DNA of 64,000 bases from an uncultured Acidobacteriota bacterium (GCA_963718845.1 CAVRAD010000001.1:47434-111433), one strand, 5' to 3'. Positions 28,662 to 54,638 are shown, numbered from the stretch's first letter. Numbers and translations are program-made. The notes: generated from the sequence alone by a model not told the origin.

Positions 28662-28796
28662 GCTTAGCGGTTGTTTTAGGAGTTGCTCACGTCTTTCCCA
28701 GGAACTGCGCAAAACAGCCACTATATTTCACGGATTACTCATTTATCTTTTTTCAGTAATCCGTGAAATCCTGGCAGAGCCCTTTATCGGACGTGA

Positions 28797-30943: not shown

Positions 30944-30953
30944 TGCCCGCTCC

Positions 30954-32365: not shown

Positions 32366-32829
32366 GGGAACCCTCCTGTACCACTTCTATTAGATACCCG
32401 AATGCCGCCGTCTCTGTGGCCTTGGGATGGATGAAAAAAACCATCGTGCCGCGCGATCCTTTCCGCGGAGCCTTGTCGACGAGCTTGAATCCGTTCTCTT
32501 TCAGATAATCGAACGCCTTCTGTATGTCCGCCACGCGCAGGGCGACGTGCGCCAGTCCGCCGCGCCCGCCATTCTTCTCAATCTGCTTGGCGACCGGCGA
32601 TTCCGCATTCAGCGGCTCAATCAGCTGCACCAGGTTCGGGCCGGTGCCCACCTGCAGCAGCACTTCCCGCACCTGATCCGTGCCCAGCACATCCTCGCGG
32701 TGCATTTTCTTGGAATCCCATGGTCTTGTAGGCGTGGACATGGGCTTCGAGTTCACCGGGTTTGACCGATATGGCCACGTGATCGAAAAATAGAAATCCG
32801 GGTACTTGTTCCAGTTGTGAATTCATCAT
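32358..32829 (-). CDS. mce: Methylmalonyl-CoA epimerase (VOC/glyoxalase fold); apparent frameshift ~32705
   Basis: N-terminus FDHVAISV..LEAHVHAYKTMGFQE (ORF 32617), then VLLQVGTGPNLVQLIEPL...GGLAHVALRVADI...FFIHPK (ORF 32358). ATGA overlap with the upstream gene. Confidence 0.75.
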
Positions 32830-33212
32830 TCAAACTCCACTACCACCTGTCCCGACTGGACACCGTCCCCCTCTTTTACCGGGATGGCGGCAATCTTGCC
32901 GGGATTGGGGGCTGTAATATTCGTTTCCATTTTCATCGCTTCGAGCACCAGCATCACATCGCCGGTCTGCAGGCTCTGTCCCACCTGCGCCGCCACGCGT
33001 ATCACGATACCGGATACGGGGCTGCGGCATACCTTGGCTTCGTCTACCGGTTTATTGTCGCCGGCTGCGGGAGCGGGCGCGGGCGCTGCCGGGACTCGCA
33101 CAGCCGCGGACCCGACCGGGATGCCGCGTAGAATAGGTGAGGGCGCCGTGGGTTCTACGGCTTCAACTTCGACTTCATATGTTTTTCCATCAATAGCAAT
33201 ATTCAATTTCAC
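32826..33212 (-). CDS. Biotin carboxyl carrier (1.3S-type biotinyl subunit)
   Basis: GTG at 33212 follows GGAGG. C-terminal biotinylation motif VLEAMKMETNI. Ala/Pro linker. Confidence 0.8.
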   Translation of the reverse strand: MKLNIAIDGKTYEVEVEAVEPTAPSPILRGIPVGSAAVRVPAAPAPAPAAGDNKPVDEAKVCRSPVSGIVIRVAAQVGQSLQTGDVMLVLEAMKMETNITAPNPGKIAAIPVKEGDGVQSGQVVVEFE

Positions 33213-33220
33213 GGCGCCTC

Positions 33221-33578
33221 CTAAGTATGCAAGTAGTGGGACGCCTGGATCGACGCGCGCCCCTGCTGCGCCCACGCATGTGAGCTGAGCAATCGAATCT
33301 GTTTTATGCGGATGCGAACTCCCAGGTACGCACCCAGCGCGGCCGAAATGGCGATCAGTTCTTCTTCCGTAATTTCTTCTTTTTGCGGTTCGGGCTGCGG
33401 CGCCGTTTCCAGCGCCACCGGGACCGGAATCGTTTCCAGGGCGGCGGGCTGCTTCGGTCCGGTCGCTTCCAGCTGCTCCACTCGCTCGGAGAGCGCCAGC
33501 GAGTTGAGCCTGAACTTTTTCCAGCAGTTCCGCCAAACCCTGCATTGTTATTTTGTTTGTCTTTGTTATTTTGGCCAT
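33221..33578 (-). CDS. Small OadG-like/decarboxylase-gamma-like subunit; apparent frameshift ~33500
   Basis: ATG at 33578 has a GAGGGGAG RBS (MAKITKTNKITMQGLAELLEKV). Continues in ORF 33221 (EEITEEELIAISAALGAYLGVRIRIKQIRLL..AWAQQGR). Confidence 0.5.
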
Positions 33579-33592
33579 ACTCTCCCCTCGCT

Positions 33593-35161
33593 CTATAGCG
33601 GAATCAGGCCATGTTTCTTGGCCGGTCTCAGCTCGCGCTTGGTATGCACATATTCCAATGCCTGCGTTATGTGATGCCGCGTCATGGAGGGCTCGATAAT
33701 GGCGTCCACCAGCCGGCGACCGGCGGCTACGTATGGATTGGAGAAAGTCTCGCGGTACTTCTCGATCAGTTCCTTGCGCTTGGCCGCTTTATTGTCCGCT
33801 TCCTGAATCTCCTTACGGAAAACGATTTCAGCCGCGCCTTCCGCGCCCATTACGGCAACTTCCGCCGTTGGCCATGCGTATACGCGGTCTGCGCCCAGGT
33901 CTTTGCCGCACATTGCCAGGTACGCGCCGCCATAGCTTTTGCGCAGGTTCACCGTGATCTTCGGGACCGTCGCGGCGGAGTACGCGAACAGCATTTTTGC
34001 TCCGTGGCGGATGATGCCGCCGTACTCCTGCTGTACTCCCGGCAAAAAGCCCGGCACATCGACGAAAGTAAGCAGTGGGACATTAAAGGCGTTGCAGAAA
34101 CGGATAAAGCTCGCGGCTTTGTTGGAAGCGTTGATGTCGAGCACGCCTGCCTGCACCGAGGGCTGATTTGCAATGATCCCCATAGAGCGGCCGGAAATGC
34201 GCGCAAATCCGATGACGATATTGGCGGCATACCCTGCCTGCACTTCCAGGAAATCGGCAAAGTCCACCACTCGGGTGATTACCTCGCGCACATCGTATCC
34301 CTTTTTAGTATCCGTGGGCACCACCTTGTCCAATTCCGGATTGGCTTCGAAATTGGGATCGCCTTCCACTTGCGGCGGATCCTCCAGGTTATTGGACGGC
34401 AGGAAGCTGAGCAGCTTCTGGCATATTTCTATGGCATGGTGGTCGTCTTCGGCGATGAAGTGAATCACGCCGGAATAGGCCATATGCGATTCCGGGCCGC
34501 CCAACTGTTCGGCGGTCACACTCTCGCCGGTAACGCTCTTGATTACCGACGGACCGGTGATGAACATCTGGGCCTGACGGGTCTGGATGATGAAGTCGGT
34601 TAAGGCGGGGCTGTAGGCTGCGCCGCCTGCGCAGGGGCCGCAGATAAGCGATATTTGCGGCACTGCGCCCGAGAGCATCACATTCGTATAAAATACTTTT
34701 CCGTAGGCTGAAAGGGAATCAATGCCTTCCTGAACACGAGCGCCTCCCGAATCGTTGATGAAGATGAACGGCGATCCTGTCTTCAAGGACTGCACCATGA
34801 TCTCGGCCACCTTAGTGGAATGGACTTCGCCGGCCGAACCGCCGGAGACAGTGAAGTCCTGGCTGGCAAGATGCACCAGCCGGCCGTGGACCGATGCTGC
34901 GCCGGTCACTACGCCGTCCGCGGGAAAACTTTTTCCGGCCATGCCGAACAGCACTGCGCGATGCTCGGCGAACAGGCCGGCTTCTTCGAAACTGCCCGGA
35001 TCCACCAACTGATCAATTCGTTCTCTGGCGGTCAGCTTGCCTTCTTCATGCTGCTTTTCCTGTTTGTCGGCCCCGCCTCCCTGCATGGCGCGGTCCCGCC
35101 GCTTCCGCAATTCCGTGATCTTTTCCTGCATTGTATGTATAGCCATTGTTCGTGACTCCAT
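33593..35161 (-). CDS. Carboxyltransferase (propionyl-CoA carboxylase beta / transcarboxylase 12S type)
   Basis: 522 aa. KLTARERIDQLVDPGSFEE, GGARVQEG and PQISLICGPCAGGAAYSPALTDF are typical of acyl-CoA carboxyltransferases. The start may be the ATG at 35146. Confidence 0.85.
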   Translation of the reverse strand: MESRTMAIHTMQEKITELRKRRDRAMQGGGADKQEKQHEEGKLTARERIDQLVDPGSFEEAGLFAEHRAVLFGMAGKSFPADGVVTGAASVHGRLVHLASQDFTVSGGSAGEVHSTKVAEIMVQSLKTGSPFIFINDSGGARVQEGIDSLSAYGKVFYTNVMLSGAVPQISLICGPCAGGAAYSPALTDFIIQTRQAQMFITGPSVIKSVTGESVTAEQLGGPESHMAYSGVIHFIAEDDHHAIEICQKLLSFLPSNNLEDPPQVEGDPNFEANPELDKVVPTDTKKGYDVREVITRVVDFADFLEVQAGYAANIVIGFARISGRSMGIIANQPSVQAGVLDINASNKAASFIRFCNAFNVPLLTFVDVPGFLPGVQQEYGGIIRHGAKMLFAYSAATVPKITVNLRKSYGGAYLAMCGKDLGADRVYAWPTAEVAVMGAEGAAEIVFRKEIQEADNKAAKRKELIEKYRETFSNPYVAAGRRLVDAIIEPSMTRHHITQALEYVHTKRELRPAKKHGLIPL

Positions 35162-35163
35162 TT

Positions 35164-35292
35164 AGGTTCCAGGTTCCAGGTTGCAGGTTCCAGGTTGCAG
35201 GTTGCATGTTCCATGTTTCATGTTAAAAACCGCACTCTGTAACCTGTAACCTGCAACCTGTAACTTGTAACCTGTAACTTGTAACCTGGAAC
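35164..35292. repeat. Tandem-heptamer hairpin: AGGTTSC units followed by inverted GTAACCT units
   Basis: aggttcc aggttcc aggttgc aggttcc aggttgc aggttgc atgttcc atgtttc ... gtaacct gtaacct gcaacct gtaactt gtaacct gtaactt gtaacct. Lies between two co-directional minus-strand genes. Confidence 0.8.
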
Positions 35293-35332
35293 TAATTATT
35301 AGTACGAAATCCCGCTAGAAATGCGGATTAGT

Positions 35333-36850
35333 CTATGCCGGCGAAACTGTTACCCTGTGCGTGGTCTCGTTCAGTTTCACATCATACGTGATTGTTTTGC
35401 GCACCGGACCTTTGCCGCTGTCCTCTGACGAGCCCGGCGCGCCTTGTGATGGAGACGCGGCCTGCTGCGCGTTCGGGTCCTTGCCCAGGTTTTTCGGGCC
35501 TGCGTCGCGCGTGGAAAAAAACTTAGGAGCCACCTGAGGAAACATGGCAAAAGTGAGCACGTCTTCATCCGAGCCATTGCAGCCGGGCAATTCCAGCGCC
35601 GCTTCGCGCAGATCCTGCCACTCCGGCTTCAGGAGATCCGCGGGACGGCACGTGATCGGAGGCTTGCCAGTCTGTTTGGCTGCCAGATCGATGACCTCTG
35701 GATTGCGCGGCCCTATGGTTTCACCGTAGTAACCCAGCATCAGGTCGGCAAACTCCCCGGTCATGACTTTGTATTTTCCCATCAGCACATTGAAGACCGC
35801 CTGCGATCCCACAATCTGGCTCGATGGCGTAACCAGCGGCGGGAAGCCGGCGTCCTTGCGCACTTTCGGAACCTCGGCCAGCACTTCATCCGTTCGGTCG
35901 TCCGCCTTCTGCTGTTTTAGCTGGCTTTCCATGTTGGAGAGCATGCCGCCGGGAATCTGGCTTTCGAAGATCTCAGTTTCCACGCCGGTGATGTTCGAGA
36001 TGAATTCCTTATAGCGAGGGGCTATTTTCAGGAAGTGCTTCTTGATTTTCAGTAGCCGTGCTTTGTCGATCTTTGTATCGAAACCCGTGCCTTCGAGCAT
36101 TTCCACCAGGCTCTCCGTGGGATTGTGGCCGGGCCCGAGGCTGAGGGCGCTGATCGCCGTATCGACTCCATCCGCGCCGGCTTCGATGGCTTTCATCAGG
36201 CTGACCATGGTGACGCCGGTGGTGGCGTGCACGTGGACCTGAACGCGCACATTCTGTCCGCAGGCGTCCTTGATTCCACGGACAAGATCATAGGCCGGTT
36301 GCGGTTTGAGAAGCGCCGCCATGTCCTTGATGCAGATGGAATCGCAGCCCAGCGCGACGAGTTTCTCTGCATGCTCCACGAACTGTTTGATGGTATGCAG
36401 CGGGCTGGTGGTATAGGAGATGGCGCCCTGGGCATGTTTGCCTGTCTTCTTCACGGCGGCAATGGCGCGCTGCAAGTTGCGAATGTCGTTGAGCGCGTCG
36501 AAAATCCGGAACACATCGATGCCGTTGTTGGCCGCTTTTTCGACAAAGCGATCGACGACCGTGTCTTCGTAATGGCGGTAGCCGAGCAGGTTCTGGCCGC
36601 GCAGCAACATCTGGAGCCGCGTGTTCGGCATGAGCTTGCGGAAGGTGCGCAGGCGTTCCCATGGGTCCTCATTGAGAAACCGGATGCAGGAGTCGAAAGT
36701 CGCGCCTCCCCAGCACTCAACGGACCAGAAACCCGCCTTGTCTATATCCTCACACGCAGGGGCCATATCCTCGGTCGCCATACGCGTCGCCATCACACTC
36801 TGATGCGCATCGCGGAGAATGAGTTCGGTAATGTCAATTATCTTGGGCAT
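35333..36850 (-). CDS. Pyruvate/oxaloacetate carboxyltransferase (transcarboxylase 5S / OadA-type) without C-terminal biotinyl domain
   Basis: MPKIIDITELILRDAHQS..., HVHATTG, and no AMKM motif at the C-terminus. ATG at 36850 follows AAGGAAGA. Confidence 0.85.
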   Translation of the reverse strand: MPKIIDITELILRDAHQSVMATRMATEDMAPACEDIDKAGFWSVECWGGATFDSCIRFLNEDPWERLRTFRKLMPNTRLQMLLRGQNLLGYRHYEDTVVDRFVEKAANNGIDVFRIFDALNDIRNLQRAIAAVKKTGKHAQGAISYTTSPLHTIKQFVEHAEKLVALGCDSICIKDMAALLKPQPAYDLVRGIKDACGQNVRVQVHVHATTGVTMVSLMKAIEAGADGVDTAISALSLGPGHNPTESLVEMLEGTGFDTKIDKARLLKIKKHFLKIAPRYKEFISNITGVETEIFESQIPGGMLSNMESQLKQQKADDRTDEVLAEVPKVRKDAGFPPLVTPSSQIVGSQAVFNVLMGKYKVMTGEFADLMLGYYGETIGPRNPEVIDLAAKQTGKPPITCRPADLLKPEWQDLREAALELPGCNGSDEDVLTFAMFPQVAPKFFSTRDAGPKNLGKDPNAQQAASPSQGAPGSSEDSGKGPVRKTITYDVKLNETTHRVTVSPA

Positions 36851-37162
36851 GTCCGGTTCTTCCTTAAAGAATTTAGTTGATCCATCGTTTTCTTCCTGAG
36901 TCTTAGGGTGGGCCATGATAGAAGGCGCCAGCTCTGAAATCCCATCTCCGGCAACGCGGAAAATGTGACTCGGGCAAAATTGGTAATTCTTAGCCTAAAG
37001 CGCCTCGAATTCAAGACCCAATACGCGAGATAAGTGAAAGAAAGACATGATTTATTTCTGCCGCTAAGTTGTTGATCTGATTAAATAAGCTGTTCCGCTC
37101 TGTGGAAAGTGCATGGCAGGGACGTCCAGGTAACACAATGTAGTAGTGCAGCCTAAAGAGGC

Positions 37163-37876: not shown

Positions 37877-39030
37877 CTATGCCAGGAGTTGCTGGGCTCG
37901 AATCAAACGATCCTGGACCCGCACTCCATTCGGACACTGAATGGCGCAGGTTTCACAGTCGATGCAACGCATATCACGAACTTCTCTTGCAAGATCTCTG
38001 AAGCTTACGACCGCATGATGGTAGTCGCCGTAGAAATCATGATACGAGAGAAAACGCAGCACGTCCGACACGGGCATGCCCTTCGGACACGTCCCTTTGC
38101 ACTGGTAACACATGCGGCAGTAATCCGGCCGGATCTGCTCGTTTATTAAGCCCAGTAATTTCTCATCCGCTGGAGTATAGGATTCCGACATCGCCCGGAA
38201 ATTCATTTCGAGCTGTGGAATGGTCCGCATATTGGGGACGGTTGTGCCGATTGCCGGATTCTGTAAAACCCATTTAATGCCTGCGACCGGGCCGTCACCG
38301 TTTGGCCTGGCGGGCGGGTTTTCGACGCTTTTTAAATTAAAGCCCGACAGCGCGACCACGACTTTCATGGCAATGACGCCGATGCCGGCTTCATGGAGCT
38401 TGGCAATTGCCGGTTCTCGGTAGCGTCCGCCGATCGGGAAAACTGTAGGTAGTCTGAATGACATCGAATTTCCCGGTTTTCAGAATGAAGGGAACCATGT
38501 TGTTGATATCGTGGCAGCTGAAGCCGATGAAGCGGGCTTTCCCCGATTTCTTGCATTGTCTCCAAAGCCTCGATCGCCTCATCCGGGATTTGGGCCGGGT
38601 TATCCCTTCCATGCAGATGCCAGATGTCGACGTGATCCGTGCCAAGTACTTGAAGACTCGTGTCCAAGTCCTCCAATATGTGCGCTTTCTTCGTCCTGCC
38701 GGACTTGCTGGCGATTATTATCTTGTCTCTTTTGCCTTTGATCACACCGGAAAAGATTTTTTCGCTGTCGCCGTAATCGCGGGAGGTGTCGAAGTAATTA
38801 ATGCCCATGTCAATGGCGCGCGCGACAACATCCGGAACCGGCACGAATCCTATGCCGTAACCGACCCCGGTAACCTTTAATCCTGTTTTTCCCAAAGTCC
38901 GATATACGACCTGGGGAGCGCTCGAACTCCCCTGAAATGCCGAGTGCAAGCCGCCCGATGAGACAAGCCCTACAGCAGGCAGAGCCAAGCCCGCCTGCAG
39001 AAACTTCCTTCGTGATTGATGGGAATCCAT
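37877..39030 (-). pseudogene. Decayed paralog of the Tat aldo/keto reductase-FeS protein (two frame breaks ~38550 and ~38440)
   Basis: ORFs 38365, 38391 and 37877 read consecutively and are colinear with 8295-9428 (SRRKFLQAGLALPA; KARFIGFSCHDINN; FPIGGRYREPAIAKLHEAGIGVIAMK; CRMCYQCKGTCP...CIDCETCAIQCP). Confidence 0.7.
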
Positions 39031-39160
39031 AAACCCTCCTTAGGTCTATTATGAGGAACAATTAAATATGTCTGTTTTTCAAAGCGTTTTCCTTAAAGGG
39101 ACACTATAACCAGGTAGAAGTCTGAAGGAGCTCAACGTCTTCGTTGATATGCACACGCTA

Positions 39161-39212
39161 TTTGTAGTAGCATGCCCCCATTTTATGTGTACTCGTTTGT
39201 GGTAGTATGCCC
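39161..39212 (+). promoter_or_regulatory. 17-nt direct repeat upstream of the cytochrome operon (candidate regulator site)
   Basis: tttgtagtagcatgccc (39161-39177) and tttgtggtagtatgccc (39196-39212), 15/17 identical, 35 nt start-to-start, 50-100 nt upstream of the first cytochrome gene. Confidence 0.3.
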
Positions 39213-39260
39213 ACTCTGAAACATACTTGTTGGGGGATGGATTGAATCCGACATCTTTAT

Positions 39261-42215
39261 TTGCAGGAGCCGGGCTTGAGGGATCGCTGCACAACCAGTT
39301 CTTCAGGATCACTCCTGGCTGCGGCATTGTGTGTCCTCGCGCTTTTAAGTGCAGCTTCATTCGACCATCTCCTTGCGCAAGACAGGGGGCAGAAAAACGA
39401 ACAGAAGCCACGGAATGGCAAGGAGCCGCCACGAGATCTGAGGCTTCCCGCAGTGGGGAGTGAAAGGGTCTGTCTGGGCTGCCACGGACCCGAGAAGGAT
39501 CCGGCAATGGTGCGTGAGGGACGAACGAGTTCCATCGAAATCAATGGCAAGCGCTTTGCCAAGTCAGCCCACGGTTCTCACGATGTTGGCTGCGTAAAGT
39601 GTCATTCAGAATTGCCCCACAAGTTCGGCCTGCCGCTGGTGAAGTGCGGTTCCTGCCACGAGAAGGAGGCGAACGTCTATAGCCGGAGCATCCACGGCAA
39701 ACAGCTTGCGGCCGGGGATAAGCTGGCGCCAACCTGTCAGGAATGCCATGGGGAGCATTACATCGTTCCGCTGCGTGATCCCGAATCGCCCGCTGCCCCT
39801 CTCAATATTTCACAGATGTGCACCAAGTGCCACGCGGAGGGACAGCCCGTGCAACGGGCTGCGAACATCCCCAAAGAACAGCTCCAGAAGCGCTACACCC
39901 AGAATATTCACAAAGACGGATTGTTCAAGCAGGGATTGGTCGTAACGGCGGTCTGCACTAGTTGCCATACGAGCCACAGCGTTCTACCCCATACGGATCC
40001 GGCCTCGAGTATTTCCAGACAAAACGTCGTTCGGACCTGCATGAAGTGCCACGGAATGATTGAGGTGGTTCATCGCAAAATCGTCCGAGGCACGCTATGG
40101 GAAAAGGAACCTCACAAAGTACCTGTCTGCGTGGAGTGCCACTCTCCACACGAAGCACGCAAGGTCCTTTATGACACCCAGATGGCCAACTCGGATTGTC
40201 TTGCCTGTCATGGCAAAAAGGATCTTCGAGCCGCCAAGGGCGGGCCGTCTCTTTTTGTGCGTGCAGAGGAATACGCGGCATCGATTCACGGGCGGAAAGT
40301 AGTCGCCTGCACGCAGTGTCATACTGGTGTAACTGTCACGGCGGAACGTCCCTGCTCGACTATCGAAAAGAAGGTGGATTGCTCCATCTGCCATGAGGCT
40401 GAGGTATCCAATTATTCTGCGGGAATCCACGGCCGATTGCACGCCAAGGGTGATACGAAAGCCCCGTACTGCACCGACTGTCACGGCACGCATGAAACCC
40501 TGGAGCACTCGACCAGCGCGGATTCGCCGGATTCTGTGAAGCAAATGGTTTACGAGTCTCCGACCTTTGCACTCAAAGTGCCCCTACTTTGCGCCCGGTG
40601 CCACCAGCGGGGCGGCCAGGCCGCAGTGCGCTATCAGGGCGCAGTGAAAAACATGGTCGAGAACTATGCCGAGAGTATCCATGGAAAAGGGCTTCGGGAG
40701 AGCGGCCTGACCGTGACGGCTACCTGCGCCGACTGCCACACCCCGCACAAAGAGCTCCCACGGAGTGATCCCCAGTCCACTGTTCATCCGGACAACATCG
40801 CCAAGGTCTGCGGCAAGTGTCATCAGGGAATCGAGGAGCAATACGCCGGGAGCGTCCACTCGCGCGCCAATAACACCGAATACAAGCGCCTACCGGGCAA
40901 GCCGGACCTGCCTGGATGCAGCGACTGCCACTCATCCCATGAAATTACCCGCGCCGACGCCACAGGCTTCAATCTCGCCGTTATGGACCAATGCGGCAAC
41001 TGCCACAAAGATGTGGTCGAGACTTACCTGGACACCTATCACGGAAAGGCGTCCAGGTTGGGAAAGGCCAACGCAGCGAAGTGTTATGACTGTCATGGCG
41101 CGCACGATATTCTGGCGCTAAACAATTCCCGGTCACGACTCAGCCAGGGAAATATTGTAGAGACCTGTGCAAAATGCCACCCGCGGGCCCATCCCGGTTT
41201 TAAAGGCTACTTGACCCACGCGACCCACTACGATTCCAAAAAGTATCCGGCGCTTTTCTTCGCGTTTTGGGGCATGACGGGCCTGTTGGTGGCAACCTTT
41301 GCATTCTTTGGCTGCCATACCCTGTTGTGGCTGCCCACGTCGTTGAGAATGCGCAAACATGCAAAAGAGATTTTGGCTGGCAGCGATCCAAATGCGAAGC
41401 ATGTCCTGCGGTTTACAATCCGCCAGCGAGCCATGCACCTGATCATGATTATAAGTTTCTTCGGGTTGGCCCTTACGGGGATGACGCTGAAGTTCAGTTA
41501 CATGGCCTGGGCGAGATTTATCGCCTGGAGCATCGGGGGCGCCGCATTTGCGGGTTACATCCATCGGGTGTGCGCTGTAGCGATGTTTAGTCTGTTCGCT
41601 TATCACCTCTGGGAATCATTCCAGCTGTATAAAAAAAGTGGCAAGAAACCCATAGATTTTCTGCTGGGTCCCGACACCATTGTGCCGACTCTGGCAGACG
41701 CCAAGGAGTTCATGGCGACGTTCAAGTGGTTTCTGGGCCGGGGGCCGCGGCCCCAATACGGGCGTTGGACCTATTGGGAGAAGTTCGACTACTTCGCGGT
41801 CTTTTGGGGTATAGGAATCATTGGCTCTACCGGCTTGATGTTGTGGTTTCCAGAACTGACCACCTGGATTCTGCCGGGATGGGTCCTTAATGTGGCGACC
41901 ATCATTCACAGCGACGAAGCGCTGCTGGCAACGGGATTTATCTTCACGATTCATTTTTTCAACACTCACTTCCGCCCCGAGAAGTTTCCCATGGACTTCG
42001 TTATGTTGACCGGCAGGGTGCCGCTGGAGGAATGGAAGCACGAAAGACCTCGCGAGTATGAGGATAGGGTTGCTACGGGAAAGATGGAGGAAATCCTCGC
42101 CGATCCAATGCCGACAGTCGTAACGCATGTGGGAAGGTTTTTCGGTATCCTGGCATTAGCGATCGGTTTGAGTCTCGTTGCCCTAATTCTTTACGCCATG
42201 CTGTTTGGTGGCTGA
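39261..42215 (+). CDS. Fusion of a 19-haem c-type cytochrome with a C-terminal FdnI/HydC-like cytochrome b membrane domain (CbcL-like architecture)
   Basis: 984-aa ORF. Signal-like SLLAAALCVLALLSAAS. 19 CXXCH counted. Last ~340 aa hold 5-6 hydrophobic helices with conserved His (AMHLIMIISFFGLALTG, YIHRVCAVAM, IIHSDEALLATGFIFTIHFFNTHF). No ATG at the 5' end; start is TTG at 39261 or 39276. Confidence 0.85.
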   Translation: MQEPGLRDRCTTSSSGSLLAAALCVLALLSAASFDHLLAQDRGQKNEQKPRNGKEPPRDLRLPAVGSERVCLGCHGPEKDPAMVREGRTSSIEINGKRFAKSAHGSHDVGCVKCHSELPHKFGLPLVKCGSCHEKEANVYSRSIHGKQLAAGDKLAPTCQECHGEHYIVPLRDPESPAAPLNISQMCTKCHAEGQPVQRAANIPKEQLQKRYTQNIHKDGLFKQGLVVTAVCTSCHTSHSVLPHTDPASSISRQNVVRTCMKCHGMIEVVHRKIVRGTLWEKEPHKVPVCVECHSPHEARKVLYDTQMANSDCLACHGKKDLRAAKGGPSLFVRAEEYAASIHGRKVVACTQCHTGVTVTAERPCSTIEKKVDCSICHEAEVSNYSAGIHGRLHAKGDTKAPYCTDCHGTHETLEHSTSADSPDSVKQMVYESPTFALKVPLLCARCHQRGGQAAVRYQGAVKNMVENYAESIHGKGLRESGLTVTATCADCHTPHKELPRSDPQSTVHPDNIAKVCGKCHQGIEEQYAGSVHSRANNTEYKRLPGKPDLPGCSDCHSSHEITRADATGFNLAVMDQCGNCHKDVVETYLDTYHGKASRLGKANAAKCYDCHGAHDILALNNSRSRLSQGNIVETCAKCHPRAHPGFKGYLTHATHYDSKKYPALFFAFWGMTGLLVATFAFFGCHTLLWLPTSLRMRKHAKEILAGSDPNAKHVLRFTIRQRAMHLIMIISFFGLALTGMTLKFSYMAWARFIAWSIGGAAFAGYIHRVCAVAMFSLFAYHLWESFQLYKKSGKKPIDFLLGPDTIVPTLADAKEFMATFKWFLGRGPRPQYGRWTYWEKFDYFAVFWGIGIIGSTGLMLWFPELTTWILPGWVLNVATIIHSDEALLATGFIFTIHFFNTHFRPEKFPMDFVMLTGRVPLEEWKHERPREYEDRVATGKMEEILADPMPTVVTHVGRFFGILALAIGLSLVALILYAMLFGG

Positions 42216-42231
42216 CACCAGAGGCGACACA

Positions 42232-44350
42232 ATGATAATGCCACGGCGACGAAGGAGATGGATTTTACGGGCTGGAATTTTTGTCTTCTTCTCCCTGCTA
42301 CCTTTATCAGAACCGAGTTCAGGCCAGACACAGGAAAGAGGAGCTGACCAGCGTTGCCTGAACTGCCATGAACAAAAGCATATTACCGCGCTCTCCCGCG
42401 AGGAGCGGGAGATGATGGTCGTTGTGCCTGAGCCCGGTCTCCCGGAGCGGAAAAATCCTGCGAGCCTGCTATGTCGAACAAAGTATTCTTGCGCAAGGAT
42501 TCCACAGCAATGTGACCTGCGAGCAGTGCCACACGGGGGTGGAATCGCTTCCTCATGCCGCCCGTTTGTCCGAGCCCCAGTGCGAAACCTGCCACCAGGA
42601 GCAAGTCGCGGAGGTTTCGCGAAGCATGCACGCAAAGGTGATTCGGACCTCGGAACCGATGCCCCCTCGATGCTGGGATTGCCACGGTGCTCACGAGATT
42701 CGTCTTCAAAGCAAGGTGAATCCACTAGAAAAGATCAGGGTCTGTGCTTCCTGCCACCAGACGTATTCGGGCCAGATGGCGGGCCTGAAGAATGGAGGCG
42801 TGCTGGTGCGATCCTACCTGGACAGTGTTCATGGCCGGAGAAAGCCCGGCACTGCGGAGGTAGGAGCCACCTGCGAGGATTGTCATGGTCACCATGAGAT
42901 CCTGCCTGTTCAAGACCCTCGCTCCAGGGTTCATCGTTTAAACATCCCGGAAACTTGCGGGCGCTGCCACGCTGATATTTTGAAAGAGTTCGAGTCGACG
43001 GTTCACGCGGAGGTGGCGCGCCGGAATGATCCGTCGGTCCGGGCCGCCCTTTGCAACGATTGCCACACGGCGCATGCCATTACGCATACCAATACACCCG
43101 AATTTATGCTGGATATCGTCAGCGAGTGTGGGGTTTGTCACAAGGAGCTCTATCGGACCTATCGGGAGACGTATCATGGCCAAGTACAGCAGCTCGGCAG
43201 CGTGCGTGCTGCACGGTGCAGTGACTGCCACGGGACCCACAACATACGGCGCCCGTCAGATCCTAAATCATTATTGTCGGCCGCCAACCGTCCCGAGACC
43301 TGTTCGCGCTGCCATCAGGAGATCAAAACAATGGCGGCATCGGGCCGCGAAAATTTCGTCGCCTACCACCCGCATGCAGACTTTCGCGATGGGCAAAAAC
43401 ATCCCGCGCTGCTTTTAATCTGGCGTTTTACTCTTATTGTCGGTGCTATCCTGCTGGCGATCTGGGGCTTGCACTGGATGGGGTGGCTCAATCGGGATTT
43501 GCGGAAGAGATCGGATCTGTCGGAGGATGGACCAGTGCATGCAATGCTCCGGTTCAAGGCGCTGCATCGCTGGACCCATCTTCTAGCGACCGCCTGTGTG
43601 CTGGGATTGGCTCTGACGGGCATGCCCCTGAAGTTCAGCCGTCAGCCCTGGGTTGTGGCCTCAATGGCGCTTTTCGGCGGGCCTGACGGAGCGGCTCTCC
43701 TTCATCGCCTGTTCGCAATTTTTTTGGTTGGCATCGGCCTGTTTTATGGATTCTATGCCTTGATTCTGCGGGGAGATCGAAAACAGCCGCTCCGGAAGCG
43801 GATCGTGGGGCCCGATAGCCTGGTGCCGAGCATCAGGGACATTCGACAATTTATAGGAATGTTTCGGTGGTTCACCGACCGGGGAGGCCGTCCGGAACTG
43901 GACCGCTGGAGCTACAGGGAAAAGTTCGACTACTGGGCCCTAGTGATCTCGGTGAACGCCCTTGCCTTTTCCGGTGCGTTTCTCTGGTTCCCCACTTTTT
44001 TCGCCAGATTCCTCTCCGGTTACTGGTTTAACGTGGCCATGGTTGTCCACAGCTATGCCGGACTGATGGCCATAGGCTGCGCCATCATGATCCATCTTTT
44101 CAATACCAGCCTTCGTAGGGAAGGATTCCCTGTGAACGATGTGATGCTCACAGGACAGCTTTCCGAGAAAGAGCTCCAAGAGGGGCGATCCGCACAGTAC
44201 GCGCGTCTGGCCAAAGAGGATACGCTGAGCCAATTGAGAGTGCAGCCAGCGTCAGACCGAAAGCGAAAGATTGCATTTTATGGTACGGTCGCATTACAGA
44301 TTCTGGGATTAGGAACTTTTATATTAATCGTTATTGCAGCGTTGATATAG
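42232..44350 (+). CDS. Fusion of an 11-haem c-type cytochrome with a cytochrome b-like membrane domain (paralog of the C-terminal half of 39261); apparent frameshift ~42468
   Basis: ATG at 42232 gives MIMPRRRRRWILRAGIFVFFSLL...CLNCH in the frame of ORF 42205, then continues in ORF 42422. 11 CXXCH in total. Membrane domain is colinear with the preceding gene (ALHRWTHLLATACVLGLALTG, REKFDYWALV, VVHSYAGLMAIGCAIMIHLFNTS). Confidence 0.8.
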
Positions 44351-44368
44351 TTATCGATAGGAAACACA

Positions 44369-45787
44369 TTGAGACCTGGCTGCTACAAATTGGAGATTGG
44401 ATCTTTGATTCCTTGGGTAGTTGTTCTTCTTGTCACGTTCTTCAGGCTTCCCCTTGCAGCTGCCCAGACAGGGCCCCAGGAGCGTCCAACCGCGCCAACG
44501 AAGAATTGCACGGCCGGTGGTTGCCATTCGAACGTGACTGCTTATCCGGTTCTGCATGGGCCTATGAGGGCGGGTGCCTGCTCCGGATGCCATAGGCAAA
44601 GTGACGCAGTAAAGCACACATTCCAACTGACCCGTGAAGGAGGCAGTCTCTGCCTTTTTTGTCACAAGCTCGAAACCGGCAAGTATTCCCATAAGCCAAT
44701 GACGGAAAAGACCTGTCTCGAATGTCACAATCCCCACGGCGGGGAGACGCGCCCGCATCTGCGTGCGAAGACTACGCGGGCATTGTGCGAGAAGTGTCAT
44801 GCAAAGACGATCAAGGGAAAGATGGTGCACAAACCGGTTGCCGATGGGGGGTGCCTGGGGTGTCACACTGCGCACGTTTCGAATTATCCGAAATTGCTTC
44901 GTCAGGAACCGAACACAGTGTGTCTGGACTGCCATGTAGTCTTCGCCAACCGGATAAAGCAGGCGCGATCCATTCACAAGCCCATGGGGGAAGGTTGCCT
45001 GAAATGTCATAACGCACATGCTTCGGATAGGCCGAAATTGCTGGGAAAACCGATGCGAGAGCTTTGTTATTCCTGCCACGAGAACATTCGATTGACTGTG
45101 GAGCATGCTAAAGTCCGCCACGGGGCACTTGAGGAAATTCGGGAGTGCATGAACTGTCACGACGCCCACGCGACCCGTTATTCGAAGCTTCTCCGGAACA
45201 ATGCGAGAGCCCTATGTCTGAAATGCCACGACAAGGAGATCACGACCTCTAAAGGGAAGATCCGGGACATGAGCAAGATACTTGCGTCCGGCAAAAGCCT
45301 TCACGTGCCGAATACAGCAAACGAGTGCAGTGCATGTCACCAGATTCACGGAGGAGACCTGTTCGATCTGCTGAACAAGGAGTATCCTTCCGAGTTTTAT
45401 TCGTCGTTCCGGGAAGAGAACTACGCGCTTTGTTTTTCCTGCCACGATCCCAGGCTAGCCGTAGTCTCGAAGACAACGAATCTGACTGGATTTCGGAATG
45501 GCGATATGAATTTGCACTCCGTGCATGTCAACCAGAAAACCAAAGGCCGAACCTGCCGCGCTTGTCACGAAATACACGCGATGGATCGGGAACAGTACAT
45601 CCGGGATTCCGTGCCCTTCGGCGACTGGATATTCCAAACTGGATATGCGAAAACGGCCGCGGGCGGATCCTGTGCCCCGGGCTGCCACCAGCATTTCTCC
45701 TATGATCGACAGAATCCCGTGAAGTACGAGCAGGATTCGGGGAAATCAGGAGAGGGTGGCAAAGAGGGAATCCAAGGTGAAAAATAA
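44369..45787 (+). CDS. Periplasmic multihaem cytochrome c (13 CXXCH + CX4CH + CX3CH), c7/c3-type repeats
   Basis: 472 aa. N-terminal hydrophobic segment. Repeating H.P.....C..CH..H motif. TTG start at 44369. Confidence 0.85.
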   Translation: MRPGCYKLEIGSLIPWVVVLLVTFFRLPLAAAQTGPQERPTAPTKNCTAGGCHSNVTAYPVLHGPMRAGACSGCHRQSDAVKHTFQLTREGGSLCLFCHKLETGKYSHKPMTEKTCLECHNPHGGETRPHLRAKTTRALCEKCHAKTIKGKMVHKPVADGGCLGCHTAHVSNYPKLLRQEPNTVCLDCHVVFANRIKQARSIHKPMGEGCLKCHNAHASDRPKLLGKPMRELCYSCHENIRLTVEHAKVRHGALEEIRECMNCHDAHATRYSKLLRNNARALCLKCHDKEITTSKGKIRDMSKILASGKSLHVPNTANECSACHQIHGGDLFDLLNKEYPSEFYSSFREENYALCFSCHDPRLAVVSKTTNLTGFRNGDMNLHSVHVNQKTKGRTCRACHEIHAMDREQYIRDSVPFGDWIFQTGYAKTAAGGSCAPGCHQHFSYDRQNPVKYEQDSGKSGEGGKEGIQGEK

Positions 45788-45834
45788 AAAGTGACTGTCA
45801 CTGGAGCGTCTTATCGCGTTTGGAAAAGAGCGAG

Positions 45835-47481
45835 ATGAATCGAATGCGCTGGAAATCTATCCGATCATTCGGAATTAATCGTTGGCTAGTGGGCATGTTG
45901 CTTGTGTGCGCCTGTGGACAAGAATTTGCGCGCGTTGCGTATAGCCAGGACAATTCAATGATCAAGCTGATTGAGACCCTGAGCGATACCAATCGCGATC
46001 TTCGTGATGAAGCCGTTAATGCTCTGGTAAAGCTGGGCCCGGCCGCCATTGAATCTCTCGTTGCCGCGCTGAAAAGCAAGAATGATGTTGTTCGACAGGA
46101 GGCTACCGGCGCATTGGGGCGTATACGGGATCCACGAGCGGTGGAGCCCCTCATCGGCGCTTTGAAGGATGCGGATTCTATTGTCAGCTATAGAGCAGCC
46201 GACGCGTTGGGGGACATCAAAGATCCGCGATCAGTGGAACCCCTCATCGCCGCCCTGAAGGATAAAAAACTGCTGTTGAGAACTCAGGCTGTCGCCGCCT
46301 TAGGGCGTATCCACGATCCCCGTGCGGTGGATGCCCTCATTGCTGCTCTGAAGGATGAGGATCCCCTCGTGAGCTATAGGGCGGCCGATGCATTGGGGGA
46401 ATTCAAAGATCCACGTGCGATAGAACCGCTTATTGTCGCGCTGAAGGATAAAAATCTCCTACTGAGAACTCAGGCTGCCGGCGCGCTTGCAAAGCTGGGT
46501 TCGGCAGTCGTTAATCCTCTCGTCGTTGCGCTGAAAAGCCATGCGGATGATGTTGCTCGCAGGGAAGCCGTCGGCATTTTGGGGCGCATCCACACTCCTG
46601 ATGCGATTGATGCCCTCATCGCTGCTCTGAAGGATTCAGATTCCATCGTGAGCTCGAGAGCAGCCGATGCATTGGGGGAAATCAAAGATTTGCGCGCTAT
46701 AGAACCCCTTATTTCCGCCATGAGGGATAAAAATCTCCTGCTGAGAACGCACTCTGCCGCCGCACTGATAAACTTGGGCCCGGCAGCCCTTGATCCTGTC
46801 GTTGCTGCGGTAAGAAAACAGGATGATGATGCTCTCCGGGAGGTTGCCACCGCCTTAATACACATCAAAGATCCGGATGCGGTTCAATCCCCGACGGCAA
46901 GCATGACGGCTCAAGATAAGGATGTTCGCTCCGCAGCCTCCAAGAAATCGGATAGCGTCAAAGATTCCCTTGGGGACCAACCCCCCGTGGACAGGCTTCT
47001 GGTTCTTAAAAAGAATCCGCTACTGAAACAGAGGCTGTTGGAATCGGAGCAGGCGGTATCGGAACCAGTGTCCATGCAGATCAAGATCCTAAGGAGCGGA
47101 GATATACGCGCCAGGGCCGACGCTGCATTTCAGTTGAGGAAAATGGGGCCGTCGGCCCAGGGGGCGATCTTGGTGCTGATCGAGACGCTGTATGATCCGA
47201 AAATTGAAGAACAGAATACCCATTGGGGAGAGGGAGTTCAGAACATAACCACGATTTCCCCGGCCATGGAAGCTGCCGAGACGCTTGTGATGTTTGGAAA
47301 TCCGGCGGTAGAGCCGCTGGTAGCGGTTCTAGAGGATTCCAATCCGAGTGTCCGGAAATCAGCCGCTCGGATACTAAGACAAATCAAAGATCCGCAGACC
47401 GTGGAACCCCTTATCGCCGTTTTGAAAGATGCGGATCCGGATACCCGGCAGATGGCAATCCAGGCGTTAGGTCGAGATTAA
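45835..47481 (+). CDS. Secreted HEAT-repeat (PBS-lyase-type) protein
   Basis: Signal-like MNRMRWKSIRSFGINRWLVGMLLVCACG. More than 10 repeats of A..ALG.I.DPRAVEPLIAALKD.D..VR. Confidence 0.8.
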   Translation: MNRMRWKSIRSFGINRWLVGMLLVCACGQEFARVAYSQDNSMIKLIETLSDTNRDLRDEAVNALVKLGPAAIESLVAALKSKNDVVRQEATGALGRIRDPRAVEPLIGALKDADSIVSYRAADALGDIKDPRSVEPLIAALKDKKLLLRTQAVAALGRIHDPRAVDALIAALKDEDPLVSYRAADALGEFKDPRAIEPLIVALKDKNLLLRTQAAGALAKLGSAVVNPLVVALKSHADDVARREAVGILGRIHTPDAIDALIAALKDSDSIVSSRAADALGEIKDLRAIEPLISAMRDKNLLLRTHSAAALINLGPAALDPVVAAVRKQDDDALREVATALIHIKDPDAVQSPTASMTAQDKDVRSAASKKSDSVKDSLGDQPPVDRLLVLKKNPLLKQRLLESEQAVSEPVSMQIKILRSGDIRARADAAFQLRKMGPSAQGAILVLIETLYDPKIEEQNTHWGEGVQNITTISPAMEAAETLVMFGNPAVEPLVAVLEDSNPSVRKSAARILRQIKDPQTVEPLIAVLKDADPDTRQMAIQALGRD

Positions 47482-48500
47482 TGACCCTCGGGTTGTTGAC
47501 GCCCCTCATCGCGGTGCTTGCGGATAGTGATGCCCAGACTCGAAATATCGCGATTCAAACATTAGGCATAATCCGGGAGTTCAAGACTGTGGATCTCATA
47601 ATATCCGCTCTCAAGGATGAAAATCCCATGATACGGAGCGGCATCGCTCAGGCATTAGGGCAGATCAGAGTTCCACGCGCGGTGGACCCTCTCGTTGCCG
47701 CTTTGAAGGATAGCGATCGCAATACGAGGCTAATGGCAATCCAAGCATTAGGGCGGGCAAAAGATCCGCGCGCGGTGGAACCCCTCCTTGCTACTTTGAG
47801 GGATAACGATCTTGACATCAGGCTTACGGCGATGCAATCCCTGGGACAGATCCAAGACCCGCGTGCCGTGGAATTCATCATCGCGTTTCTAAGAGACAGC
47901 AATCCCATTGTCCGGCGCATGGCGGTTCAGGCATTACGGCAAATCAAAGACCCGCGCGTTTCGAAGTCCCTTATCCCGGTCCTTGCGGATGAGGATGCCC
48001 AGACTCGTGCCCTGGTCATTCAAGCATTAGGGAACATCAAGGGTTCCCAGGCTTTGGATCTCCTCCTGGCCGCTCTAAAGGATGCGCAACCCTTGATTCG
48101 GATTGGCGCATTCCAGGTTCTAGGGCAGATCAGGGATTCCTATGTTGTAGAACCTCTCATGGTTATTTTGAAAGATTTAAATCCCGAAACCCGGAATATG
48201 GCAGCCCTTGCATTAGGGCGGATCCGTGATCCGCGCGCCGTGGAATCCCTCATCGCGGCTTTGAATGATAAAGATCAGAACGTACAGATATCAGCCGTGA
48301 GAGCATTGGGGGAGATCAATGATCCGCGTGCTGTGGAGCCCCTCATCGCTGCCTTGCAGGGTAAGCCAGAGGTTGTTCGTACTGAGGTGGCGTGGGTTCT
48401 AACAAAACTCACCGATAAGGATTTCGGCATTAATTATAATCTCTGGAAACAGTGGTGGAGTTCCCAAGCGCCGGTCGGGCTTAATACCTCAAAACCATAA
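47481..48500 (+). CDS. HEAT-repeat protein: either a separate gene (TAATG stop/start overlap) or the C-terminal half of 45835 if the junction is a frameshift
   Basis: About 10 further repeats of the same consensus. The third frame across the junction reads NDPRVVD, which fits the repeat consensus, so the boundary is ambiguous. Confidence 0.65.
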   Translation: MTLGLLTPLIAVLADSDAQTRNIAIQTLGIIREFKTVDLIISALKDENPMIRSGIAQALGQIRVPRAVDPLVAALKDSDRNTRLMAIQALGRAKDPRAVEPLLATLRDNDLDIRLTAMQSLGQIQDPRAVEFIIAFLRDSNPIVRRMAVQALRQIKDPRVSKSLIPVLADEDAQTRALVIQALGNIKGSQALDLLLAALKDAQPLIRIGAFQVLGQIRDSYVVEPLMVILKDLNPETRNMAALALGRIRDPRAVESLIAALNDKDQNVQISAVRALGEINDPRAVEPLIAALQGKPEVVRTEVAWVLTKLTDKDFGINYNLWKQWWSSQAPVGLNTSKP

Positions 48501-48516
48501 TAGGAAGCCTCGGTTC

Positions 48517-49797
48517 ATGCATATGGAAGGATCGGACGCGAAATATCATCGGCAAAAGGATAGCAAACGCTTCCAGCCTCGACTTGCGTACGTGCTTATC
48601 GGCCTGCTGGCATGCGTTGCGCTTTGTGGAGTGTGCGCGGCCATTTCTGCGCCCCAAAAGAATCCCCAGGCTTCCGCCGCGCGACAGGACAAGAAGCCAC
48701 ACCCCCCCCTGGCGGGCAAAGCGTGCGTCGATTGCCACGAACAGAATGTGTCGTCAACGGTGCGCTGCCTGGTGGCTAAAGAACCGTTGTGCGTACTCTG
48801 TCACGATATCCCGGATGTCGGAGGCACTTCGCGCCTGGTGAACTCAGACAATCCGCTCTGCTTCAAGTGCCATGCGAAAGAAAAATTCAAAAGCAGCTTT
48901 AGTCACGGGCCATTTGTTTTCGGGGCATGTGTTGCCTGTCACGATCCGCACGGAGGTAATGAACCACGCATGTTGCGGATTTCCGGCCGGCAACTGTGCT
49001 TGACCTGCCATAGGGACATGGATACCAGGTTCACGAATGCAAGATTTCGGCACCAGGCCTTAGCGACCGGATGCACCGAATGCCATTCCCCGCATTCATC
49101 GGAGCAGCGCTACGAGTTGAAGGCGGCCGTTCCCGTACTTTGCGCCAAATGTCACGAAAAAACTCTCCACGAACAGGAAGCGGTAAAAGTAAAACATTCT
49201 CCGGTCACAGAGGCGCCCGCTTGTATGAATTGTCATAATCCGCATCTGTCCGAGAACGATCATTTACTCCTTTCCGAGGAGCCGGATACTTGTCTGAGAT
49301 GCCACGATGAGCCCATCAAGATCGGCAAAAATGAATTGGAGCCAATGGGACAATTCCTGGCGGCGAATCCAAGGCAGCACGGGCCCATGCAAAGCAAGGA
49401 ATGCTCAGGATGCCACAAACCGCACGGGTCCTCCCATTTCCGACTCTTGACCGATGCATATCCGAAAGAGTTTTATGCTCCCTTCCAGGTATCGAAATAC
49501 GATCTCTGCTTTCGTTGCCATGAGTCCACCCTGGTGAAAGAAGAGCGCACGGCAACGTTGACTGGATTTCGAGATGGCGACCGCAATCTTCATTTTGTTC
49601 ATGTCAGCAAGGTCCCGGCAGGACGAACTTGCCGGTTTTGTCACGAGACTCACGCGAGCACTTTGCCCAAACACATCCGGGTGTTCGTGCCCTTCGGGAC
49701 ATGGAAGCTGCCGGTAGGATTTAGTCAGACCGAAAATGGCGGAAGCTGTGCGCCCGGCTGTCATGAATTAAAGAAATACGAACGGAAGGCCGGGTAA
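48517..49797 (+). CDS. Periplasmic multihaem cytochrome c (12 CXXCH + CX3CH), paralog of 44369-45787
   Basis: 426 aa. TM/signal segment LAYVLIGLLACVALCGVCAAISA. C-terminal module LCFRCH..LTGFRDGDRNLHFVHV...GRTCRFCHE.H...GGSCAPGCH is shared with 44369. Confidence 0.85.
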   Translation: MHMEGSDAKYHRQKDSKRFQPRLAYVLIGLLACVALCGVCAAISAPQKNPQASAARQDKKPHPPLAGKACVDCHEQNVSSTVRCLVAKEPLCVLCHDIPDVGGTSRLVNSDNPLCFKCHAKEKFKSSFSHGPFVFGACVACHDPHGGNEPRMLRISGRQLCLTCHRDMDTRFTNARFRHQALATGCTECHSPHSSEQRYELKAAVPVLCAKCHEKTLHEQEAVKVKHSPVTEAPACMNCHNPHLSENDHLLLSEEPDTCLRCHDEPIKIGKNELEPMGQFLAANPRQHGPMQSKECSGCHKPHGSSHFRLLTDAYPKEFYAPFQVSKYDLCFRCHESTLVKEERTATLTGFRDGDRNLHFVHVSKVPAGRTCRFCHETHASTLPKHIRVFVPFGTWKLPVGFSQTENGGSCAPGCHELKKYERKAG

Positions 49798-54289: not shown

Positions 54290-54638
54290 GGAGTGCGGCA
54301 GCAAGCTCTGCTCCTTACCCGCATCTTTGAAAATGAATCGAGCGATCGAAGCGCTGAAAGCGCGGTGCAGCAAAGCCCAGGGCGCAAGCCCTGGGTTATG
54401 AGAAGCAAGAAAAGGAGTCCTGAAAGGACGAAGCAGCCTGCGCCGCCCTTTCAGGGCTTTATCTTCTCCGCCTCCGACCCAGGGTTACGGCCGCTGCGCG
54501 GCCTCCGCCCTGGGCTTTGCTGCACCGCGCTTTCAGCGCTGGAGTTCTCGTTAGCATGATGCCTGTGATGCAATACTCACACGCAAATGCTTACCGATAG
54601 GAAGATGCGTGCAAGGAGCAGAGCTTGCTGCCGCTTTT
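54290..54638. repeat. Nested palindrome (outer ggagtgcggcag family arms, inner gcgctgaaagcgcg...cccagggc family arms)
   Basis: Outer arms 54290-54328 / 54602-54638. Inner arms 54350-54383 / 54507-54540. Confidence 0.8.

Follow-up and report, generated by a model that had tools for sequence, protein, structure and literature searches.

A five-gene Acidobacteriota operon of tandem cytochrome c/b fusions, MtrA-like cytochromes and one exported HEAT-repeat protein: a putative quinol-linked periplasmic electron-transfer module

A multihaem cytochrome operon was analysed in a 64,000-nucleotide stretch of DNA from an uncultured Acidobacteriota bacterium (GCA_963718845.1, CAVRAD010000001.1:47434-111433; the whole stretch is called the window). 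The operon occupied positions 39261-49797 of the plus strand as a compact row of open reading frames (ORFs), and the genes on both sides ran in the opposite direction. Our reading, to which we give a probability of about 0.6, is that it encodes a self-contained five-gene module that would connect the quinone pool of the membrane with an extensive haem network in the periplasm, with electrons flowing outward and the HEAT-repeat protein acting as a scaffold, docking or assembly factor. An earlier note, made from the sequence alone, had proposed a quinol-linked periplasmic electron-transfer module of six co-directional genes. That function remained the most reasonable one. The shared direction and the spacers between the ORFs as first called (16, 18, 47, -1 and 16 nt) were confirmed, but the number of genes fell to five after the repair of single-base insertions. 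The corrected unit consists of a 19-haem cytochrome c/b fusion (c/b19), an 11-haem fusion (c/b11), a multihaem cytochrome with 13 CXXCH motifs (MHC13), the HEAT-repeat gene and a multihaem cytochrome with 12 CXXCH motifs (MHC12); two of these genes are frame-broken in the assembly. The features of the operon are as follows.

39261..42215, plus strand: gene 1, putative inner-membrane fusion of a 19-haem cytochrome c and a dihaem cytochrome b (19 CXXCH, Pfam, AlphaFold2 (AF2) and Foldseek).
42232..44350, plus strand: gene 2, a paralog of gene 1 that joins an 11-haem cytochrome c to a dihaem cytochrome b, 705 amino acids (aa) after repair (an extra C at ~42469 breaks the frame).
44369..45787, plus strand: gene 3, predicted exported MtrA-like multihaem cytochrome with 13 CXXCH, an N-terminal CX4CH and a C-terminal CxPGCH (motifs, Pfam, phmmer and Foldseek).
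45835..48500, plus strand: HEAT-repeat gene, 887 aa after repair (Pfam HEAT_2 and HEAT_PBS; first called as 45820-47481 and 47481-48500).
48517..49797, plus strand: gene 5, the last gene, predicted exported MtrA-like multihaem cytochrome with 12 CXXCH and a C-terminal CxPGCH (motifs and paralogy to gene 3).
44507-44527 and 45671-45691 (gene 3) and 49747-49764 (last gene), plus strand: atypical haem motifs, conserved family-wide.

The operon contained 55 CXXCH motifs, distributed as 19 in gene 1, 11 in gene 2 (1 + 10 across its two frames), 13 in gene 3 and 12 in the last gene. Non-canonical motifs were a CX4CH at residue 47 and a CX3CH at residue 435 of gene 3 and a CX3CH at residue 411 of the last gene. 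The recount agreed with the counts given previously, including one CX4CH and two CX3CH. Such a density was not a product of chance, since the other ORFs of the window (~13,000 aa) contained a single CXXCH, and six-frame translation yielded 59 CXXCH in 39261-49797 versus 3 in the remaining 53 kb. The Pfam search assigned multihaem c domains to four products, placed Ni_hydr_CYTB at the C-terminal end of each of the first two and recognised HEAT_2/HEAT_PBS in the middle ORFs. No product reached an equivalog-level assignment in the NCBIfam search.

The product of gene 1, whose probable start was the TTG at 39276 with an AGGAG 6 nt upstream, began with a signal peptide, which was followed by ~650 aa of periplasmic c domain and, at the C-terminus, by an FdnI-type domain of six long helices. 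Cytochrom_c3_2, Cytochrome_C7 and Paired_CXXCH_1 were matched in it; its Ni_hydr_CYTB match was weak (28.6 bits, just under the cut-off of 30.1), and that of gene 2 was over the cut-off (32.5 bits). Both fusions began with hydrophobic signal sequences, and their b domains were homologous, with 34% identity. Gene 2 aligned to approximately residues 290-984 of gene 1, so that by alignment it is in effect a shorter paralog that lacks the first eight haems. Intact gene 2 orthologs were 705-706 aa long in the related loci L001-L004, L089, L092 and L094/L095 and 692 aa long in L087; L090 had a 645-aa call.

The conformation of the b domain was evaluated with an AF2 model, which contained six long helices and had a mean predicted local distance difference test (pLDDT) value of 85.9. 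Its only significant match in the Protein Data Bank (PDB) by Foldseek was Escherichia coli FdnI, the gamma subunit of formate dehydrogenase-N (1kqf_C; E 1.4e-5, template modelling (TM) score 0.79 on the target). Two alignments were made, one of gene 1 and 14 homologs and the other of both b domains together with 36 homologs (38 sequences in all, gene 2 among them); they gave four invariant histidines, His726, His768, His883 and His898 in the numbering of gene 1. In the profile-to-sequence alignment, these residues fell on four aligned histidines of FdnI, the first two of which were His18 and His57, counted along the printed FdnI sequence. We take the other two to be His155 and His169, and all four to be the b-haem ligands of the Fdn-N structure. 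The earlier note had described FdnI/HydC-type dihaem b domains on both genes, which the identity, the fold match and Ni_hydr_CYTB bore out, and had named the loss of the b-haem ligands as an observation that would count against it; the alignment was inspected for such a loss, and all four were conserved. The likeness to FdnI thus covered the fold and the ligands. In contrast to FdnI, the b domain here carried two extra helices, an N-terminal one joining the c domain and a C-terminal one, and no FdnG/FdnH partners and no molybdopterin or iron-sulphur (FeS) subunit genes were adjacent. Identity as a formate dehydrogenase gamma subunit was rejected, because the equivalog scores were under their cut-offs (TIGR01583, 30.8 and 29.0 bits versus 115.85; NF007924, 33.1 versus 341) and FdnG/FdnH were not adjacent. 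From the TIGR01583 score and the missing partners, the JGI label "cytochrome b subunit of formate dehydrogenase" was judged to be a domain-level name.

Genes 1 and 2 were assigned by homology to the CbcL/MtrH/MtoC family. Both had its features, namely a signal peptide followed by a multihaem c domain (19 and 11 CXXCH), an FdnI-like b domain and the b-haem histidines. Homologs of this family have been reported across 15 phyla; they carry 3-23 haem motifs, measure 416-1034 aa and as a rule have six transmembrane helices (Zhong and Shi, 2018; PMC6295460), and Table S2 of that survey contains both 19-haem (~950 aa) and 11-haem (~705 aa) members. One entry, OGU58019.1 of Ignavibacteria GWF2_33_9 (952 aa, 19 motifs), was the same protein as an ORF of L049, with equal length and identical positions of the 19 motifs; this ORF shared 50% identity with gene 1. 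In the ~705-aa 11-haem entries of the same table, the motifs were spaced as in gene 2. The best-known member, CbcL of Geobacter sulfurreducens (GSU0274), likewise joins an N-terminal periplasmic multihaem c domain to a six-helix HydC/FdnI-type dihaem b domain with conserved histidines. CbcL differs in having 9 haems and in standing alone, whereas here tandem 19- and 11-haem paralogs were followed by MtrA-like cytochromes and a HEAT protein. With 19 and 11 haems instead of nine, neither fusion was CbcL in the strict sense, that is, the Geobacter low-potential quinol oxidase. CbcL is the only form of the family with genetic evidence, and no experiments on a protein with 19 or 11 haems were found in the literature.

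The 19-haem form was common. More than 3,000 homologs of gene 1 were present in the database at E <= 1e-10, with 19 CXXCH in 105 of the best 120. Among the matches listed, which came from species-representative genomes, the form was confirmed in at least 598 stretches (598 of 600 that matched the pattern), distributed among Planctomycetota, Acidobacteriota, Myxococcota, Bacteroidota/Ignavibacteria, Zixibacteria, Eisenbacteria, Gemmatimonadota, Hydrogenedentes, Calditrichota and other phyla. These fusions are among the most widespread candidate gates for electrons from quinol to periplasm outside Proteobacteria. The "duplicated c/b entry points" had been regarded as unusual, which was not upheld: in ~24 of 70 distant loci, from many phyla, a 19-haem fusion was accompanied by a second fusion of 11-17 haems in tandem or nearby. 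Because Table S2 lists both forms and the pairing recurs at this frequency, neither the fusions nor their duplication were new. Two larger members of the gene 1 family were also observed, P0009 (L086, 2568-7478; 1636 aa, 32 CXXCH) and P0037 (1566 aa, 30 CXXCH), each with a single b domain and with motif counts far over the 3-23 range of the 2018 survey (PMC6295460). The possibility that P0009 was a fusion of genes 1 and 2 was ruled out by its one b domain and 32 CXXCH.

The products of gene 3 and the last gene both carried signal peptides and resembled MtrA of the Shewanella MtrCAB complex. Six Paired_CXXCH_1 stretches were found in gene 3, and its residues 65-329 aligned to residues 61-323 of MtrA (6r2q_A) with E 8.7e-13 in phmmer, the best of three sequence matches. 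MtrA was also the only PDB match of the gene 3 model in Foldseek (E 5.3e-8, 29% identity over 278 columns); the mean pLDDT of this model was 74.7, and its C-terminal 140 residues were weaker. The last gene was a paralog of gene 3 with 37% identity, without the CX4CH and one CXXCH. The family of gene 3 had more than 2,000 members, mostly in Planctomycetota and Acidobacteriota, and across 37 homologs the C-terminal CxPGCH was invariant and the N-terminal CX4CH was at least 90% conserved. This conservation suggests that the atypical motifs are probably extra haem sites, which would bring the true haem counts to 15 for gene 3 and 13 for the last gene. The match to MtrA concerned both sequence and fold; the differences were haem motifs numbering 13+2 and 12+1 here against 10 in MtrA/DmsE, and an extra C-terminal domain of ~140 aa. 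Membership of the MtrA/DmsE decahaem family was rejected in view of TIGR03508 scores of 122.6 and 113.6 bits versus a cut-off of 192.2 and of 13 and 12 CXXCH rather than ten, although the resemblance to MtrA was real. Neither an MtrB-type porin nor an MtrC partner was adjacent, as would be the case in MtrCAB. An outer-membrane conduit of the porin-cytochrome type (MtrCAB, Pcc, Ext) was likewise rejected for want of an adjacent beta-barrel porin gene.

The HEAT product had a signal-peptide-like N-terminus, two blocks of ~31-residue repeats of the phycobilisome (PBS) lyase type and a conserved linker; it had no cysteine outside the signal region. The hydrophobic signal-like N-terminus was common to six orthologs. 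In relatives the orthologs were single genes of 873-915 aa, with full-length identities of 47-70%. The same ~31-residue repeat occurs in the phycobiliprotein lyases CpcE/CpcF and in NblB, and PF03130 scored 173.7 and 143.4 bits here. The present protein differs from these in being ~4x longer, in having a signal peptide and in being encoded among cytochromes in a non-phototroph. Identity as a phycobiliprotein lyase or NblB was excluded by scores far under the equivalog cut-offs (NblB, 124.7 versus 300; CpcE, 121.1 versus 330; CpcF, 100.7 versus 220) and by the signal-peptide-like N-terminus conserved in the orthologs. Further relatives were sought in three ways. The homolog search with the N-terminal half was dominated by generic HEAT proteins, and the true orthologs were not among the matches listed. 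A metagenome scan with degenerate patterns from the linker alignment gave one true relative, L093, among the matches listed. A phmmer search of the linker against 1.84 billion representatives gave 891 matches, mostly generic repeats covering part of the query; an unbroken match to the entire linker was seen for ~16 of the top 150, mostly fragments. The linker result suggests a narrow ortholog group, without a firm count.

Gene order was then compared across relatives. Besides the window, nine loci showed the order c/b19, c/b11, MtrA-like cytochrome and HEAT (the set consisted of L001-3, L004, L087/88, L089, L090, L092, L093 and L094/95). L092 was an NCBI Acidobacteriota metagenome-assembled genome (MAG), and the closest named relative was an Acidobacteriota MAG. 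Across these loci the identity of the HEAT protein dropped to 47%, and the flanking genes were completely different. In L094, for example, the five genes lay between lysine-biosynthesis genes and an aldehyde dehydrogenase gene, with nothing porin-like within 10 kb. Orthologs of gene 5 followed immediately on the same strand in L004, L089, L090 and L094, and in L001, L087 and L092 they lay downstream in convergent orientation; L093 was the one conserved locus with no gene 5 ortholog nearby, since the tblastn search there detected the gene 3 paralog alone. From the conserved order, the diverged HEAT protein, the differing flanks and the spacers of 16-47 nt, we infer that the genes of the operon are functionally linked. 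No HEAT gene was located within 10 kb of the gene 1 homolog in any of 80 distant loci (0/80), indicating that the HEAT link is lineage-specific.

The composition of the operon had been presented as matching no described system. This was partly correct, since no characterised complex with the same gene order was found in the literature, but the fusions and their pairing were already catalogued. The novel element is narrower than had been claimed: a lineage-specific, conserved association with one large exported HEAT protein in an operon without a porin. No paper containing both "HEAT repeat" and "multiheme" was found in the literature searched, and nothing relevant was found on CbcL together with Acidobacteriota genera. 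The architectures presented in a 2026 preprint on electron-transfer clusters of Acidobacteriota from peat are porin-based, and cytochrome b fusions and HEAT repeats are not mentioned there. A gate locked in synteny with MtrA-like wires and an exported alpha-solenoid provides a defined set of partners to test.

A locus of Phycisphaerae (L091, GCA_046350375.1) offered a partial parallel. It contained a c/b fusion and several MtrA-like paralogs, with an alpha-solenoid gene right after the gene 3 homolog. This solenoid was a 351-aa protein of the tetratricopeptide repeat (TPR)/AhpC-TSA type, not a HEAT protein, and L091 encoded an NHL protein and a candidate outer-membrane barrel of 709 aa, both of which were missing here. 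The parallel is a hint that MtrA-like cytochromes may have alpha-solenoid partners more than once. Positions 1-21416 of L091 held the c/b fusion, ~7 multihaem cytochromes and the NHL-repeat protein, and a sigma-54 two-component system preceded the cluster. A second putative quinol-linked module was observed divergently upstream of the c/b operon in L001 (3016-6982, minus strand), as well as in L002 and L003. In L001 it comprised a multihaem cytochrome, an NrfC-like FeS protein, an NrfD-like membrane protein and another multihaem cytochrome, and a gene for a 744-aa TPR protein lay between the two modules.

In the proposed mechanism, the two inner-membrane c/b fusions (19 and 11 haems) would exchange electrons between menaquinol/menaquinone and the periplasm. 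Menaquinol would be oxidised at the b domains, with the quinone site near the haem on the cytoplasmic side by analogy with FdnI, and outward flow could then be aided by the membrane potential. Such assistance has been discussed in the case of CbcL and low-potential acceptors. The electrons would pass via the 19- and 11-haem chains to the two soluble, exported cytochromes of the MtrA-like type, which have up to 15 and 13 haems and may carry the electrons onward or store them in the periplasm. The exported HEAT alpha-solenoid (~887 aa, no redox motifs) might dock, organise or help assemble the cytochromes, and any outer-membrane step would be encoded elsewhere in the genome. The flow is most likely outward, with quinol oxidation feeding an extracellular or periplasmic acceptor.

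Several observations weigh against this reading. The CbcL/MtrH/MtoC family has members in Fe(III) reducers as well as in Fe(II) oxidisers (PMC6295460). That the fusions are homologous to Geobacter CbcL itself was established only indirectly, via the published list entry OGU58019.1 (Table S2, PMC6295460). The HEAT protein had no diagnostic feature beyond its repeats and signal peptide, and targeted searches with it were uninformative. Moreover, an outer-membrane conduit or terminal acceptor was absent from the window and from 10 kb around the relatives' loci, and extracellular electron transfer is an assumption for this reason. The absence of a porin reported previously was reproduced: no porin, reductase or dehydrogenase gene was found in the cluster or its flanks, and no porin-like ORF in the whole 64-kb window.

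Since the family spans Fe(III) reducers and Fe(II) oxidisers, the direction of flow could not be read from the sequence. A periplasmic or extracellular donor (Fe(II), reduced humics, a cathode or a partner cell) could instead supply the electrons that reduce the quinone pool, as proposed for MtoC in Fe(II) oxidisers. No sequence feature separating the two directions was seen by Zhong and Shi (PMC6295460), and the structural template FdnI naturally moves electrons inward to menaquinone, as established for Fdn-N. However, the genes of the window fit a fermentative or anaerobic heterotroph, with glycyl-radical enzymes and a methylmalonyl-CoA pathway, and no carbon-fixation or oxidase genes were visible in the 64-kb window; this evidence is weak, as only 64 kb are covered. 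Reverse flow was considered unlikely, and outward flow was retained as the more probable direction.

The HEAT protein is most likely a scaffold, docking or assembly factor for the cytochromes of the operon. A narrower role outside the electron path, as a dedicated periplasmic maturation factor or chaperone for very large apocytochromes that is possibly linked to the CX3CH/CX4CH sites, appeared improbable. Its PBS-lyase HEAT-like repeats recall lyases that form tetrapyrrole-cysteine thioethers, it has a signal peptide, and the TPR/AhpC-TSA protein holds the equivalent place after the gene 3 homolog in L091. Alpha-solenoid chaperones of apocytochromes are established: the TPR proteins CcmI and NrfG, to which such a factor may be likened, hold apocytochromes for haem ligation. 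Nevertheless, CX3CH/CX4CH were conserved throughout the gene 3 family, yet L091 had no HEAT gene within 10 kb; none of the 80 distant gene 1 loci had one within that distance either, all lyase models of NCBIfam were far under their cut-offs, and the mature HEAT protein had no cysteine.

A bolder version of the scaffold role, which we regard as doubtful, is that the ~887-aa solenoid is a structural part of the conduit that wraps or docks the MtrA-like haem wire and tethers it to the tandem c/b fusions. If this were true, an alpha-solenoid would replace, for an MtrA-like wire, the beta-barrel MtrB in this Acidobacteriota lineage, and a haem path anchored in the inner membrane would span the periplasm with no dedicated porin encoded in the operon. 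Should the HEAT protein prove to be part of the conduit or of its assembly, it would represent a new class of non-redox component in electron-transfer systems.

The integrity of the five genes was examined by DNA-level alignment to the relatives L089 (93% identity) and L090 (81%), plus L004 for gene 2. Three single-base insertions were identified in the window: an extra C at ~42469, which was missing from L089, L090 and L004, and an extra G at ~47474 and an extra A at ~47499, which were missing from L089 and L090. Gene 2 was thereby divided between two frames, with the signal peptide and first CXXCH read from the ATG at 42232 and the other ten CXXCH and the b domain in a frame opening at 42416; tblastn with an intact 705-aa ortholog placed the frame shift. 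The two HEAT ORFs abutted at TAATG, and the repeat passed through all three frames within 45 bp, reading "AIQALG", then "EINDPRVVDAP", then "LIAVLADSD". The two embedded HEAT proteins with a -1 overlap that had been described were accordingly one gene of ~887 aa, cut by the insertions at ~47474 and ~47499. Removal of the three bases gave stop-free products of 705 aa (gene 2) and 887 aa (HEAT), which were colinear with the intact orthologs (705-706 and 873-915 aa), and the five-gene unit was unbroken in L090 and L094/L095.

The three breaks are most likely errors of an indel-rich assembly, with long reads as the probable source. Assembly error was favoured because at least four unrelated genes of the window were also frame-broken, namely the gene for the aldo-keto reductase (AKR)/Fer4 fusion, which had two single-base insertions relative to L005, a glycyl-radical enzyme gene of the pyruvate formate-lyase (PFL)-like type and both methylmalonyl-CoA mutase subunit genes. 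The 93% identical contig L089 was broken elsewhere, with gene 1 split, the HEAT gene in six pieces and gene 2 intact. Programmed frameshifting was ruled out, since the sites were single-base insertions relative to the relatives and unrelated genes of the window were broken too. That the operon is a decaying pseudogene array, with real insertions in two of its five genes and a module no longer functional in this organism, is very unlikely, since similar breaks affected the mutase, glycyl-radical enzyme and AKR/Fer4 genes, the frames were otherwise open and conserved, L089 was broken at other places, and the Illumina-assembled relatives were unbroken. Split regions in the window included 19713-22126, 28753-32365, 37877-39030, 42469, 47474 and 47499, with at least six genes affected, and gene calls anywhere in the window need caution. 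The practical lesson is that indel-rich long-read assemblies can yield "extra genes" and "overlapping starts" that mimic a novel operon architecture.

Upstream of the operon, one further feature was delimited by position alone.

39031..39260, plus strand: intergenic stretch that separates gene 1 from the divergent AKR/Fer4 gene upstream of it, presumed to hold the promoter and 5' untranslated region.

The promoter scan gave one sigma-70-like match at 39144-39173 (9/12 positions), no better than the shuffled expectation, and no convincing internal terminator was found within the operon; as the promoter and terminator matches were not above the shuffled expectation, these scans are silent on co-transcription.

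The upstream neighbour of the operon was the AKR/ferredoxin fusion, and the downstream neighbour was a glycyl-radical enzyme activase. Two paralogous fusions of an AKR with a 4Fe-4S ferredoxin were present in the window, an intact copy at 8295-9428 (plus strand) and the frame-broken copy at 37877-39030 (minus strand) directly upstream of the operon. A cluster at 25938-36916 (minus strand) encoded a CoA transferase, MeaB, mutase subunits, a glyoxalase-type epimerase, a carboxyltransferase, a biotin carrier and a 5S-like subunit. This set for a methylmalonyl-CoA pathway or transcarboxylase suggests propionate fermentation and, together with the neighbouring glycyl-radical enzymes, would indicate an anaerobic fermenter. 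Finally, in support of an Acidobacteriota origin, an Acido-Lenti-1 RNA motif (RF01687) was detected at 54350-54395 (minus strand), between a molybdopterin oxidoreductase gene and a DUF4126 gene, with 47.7 bits against a gathering score of 37.

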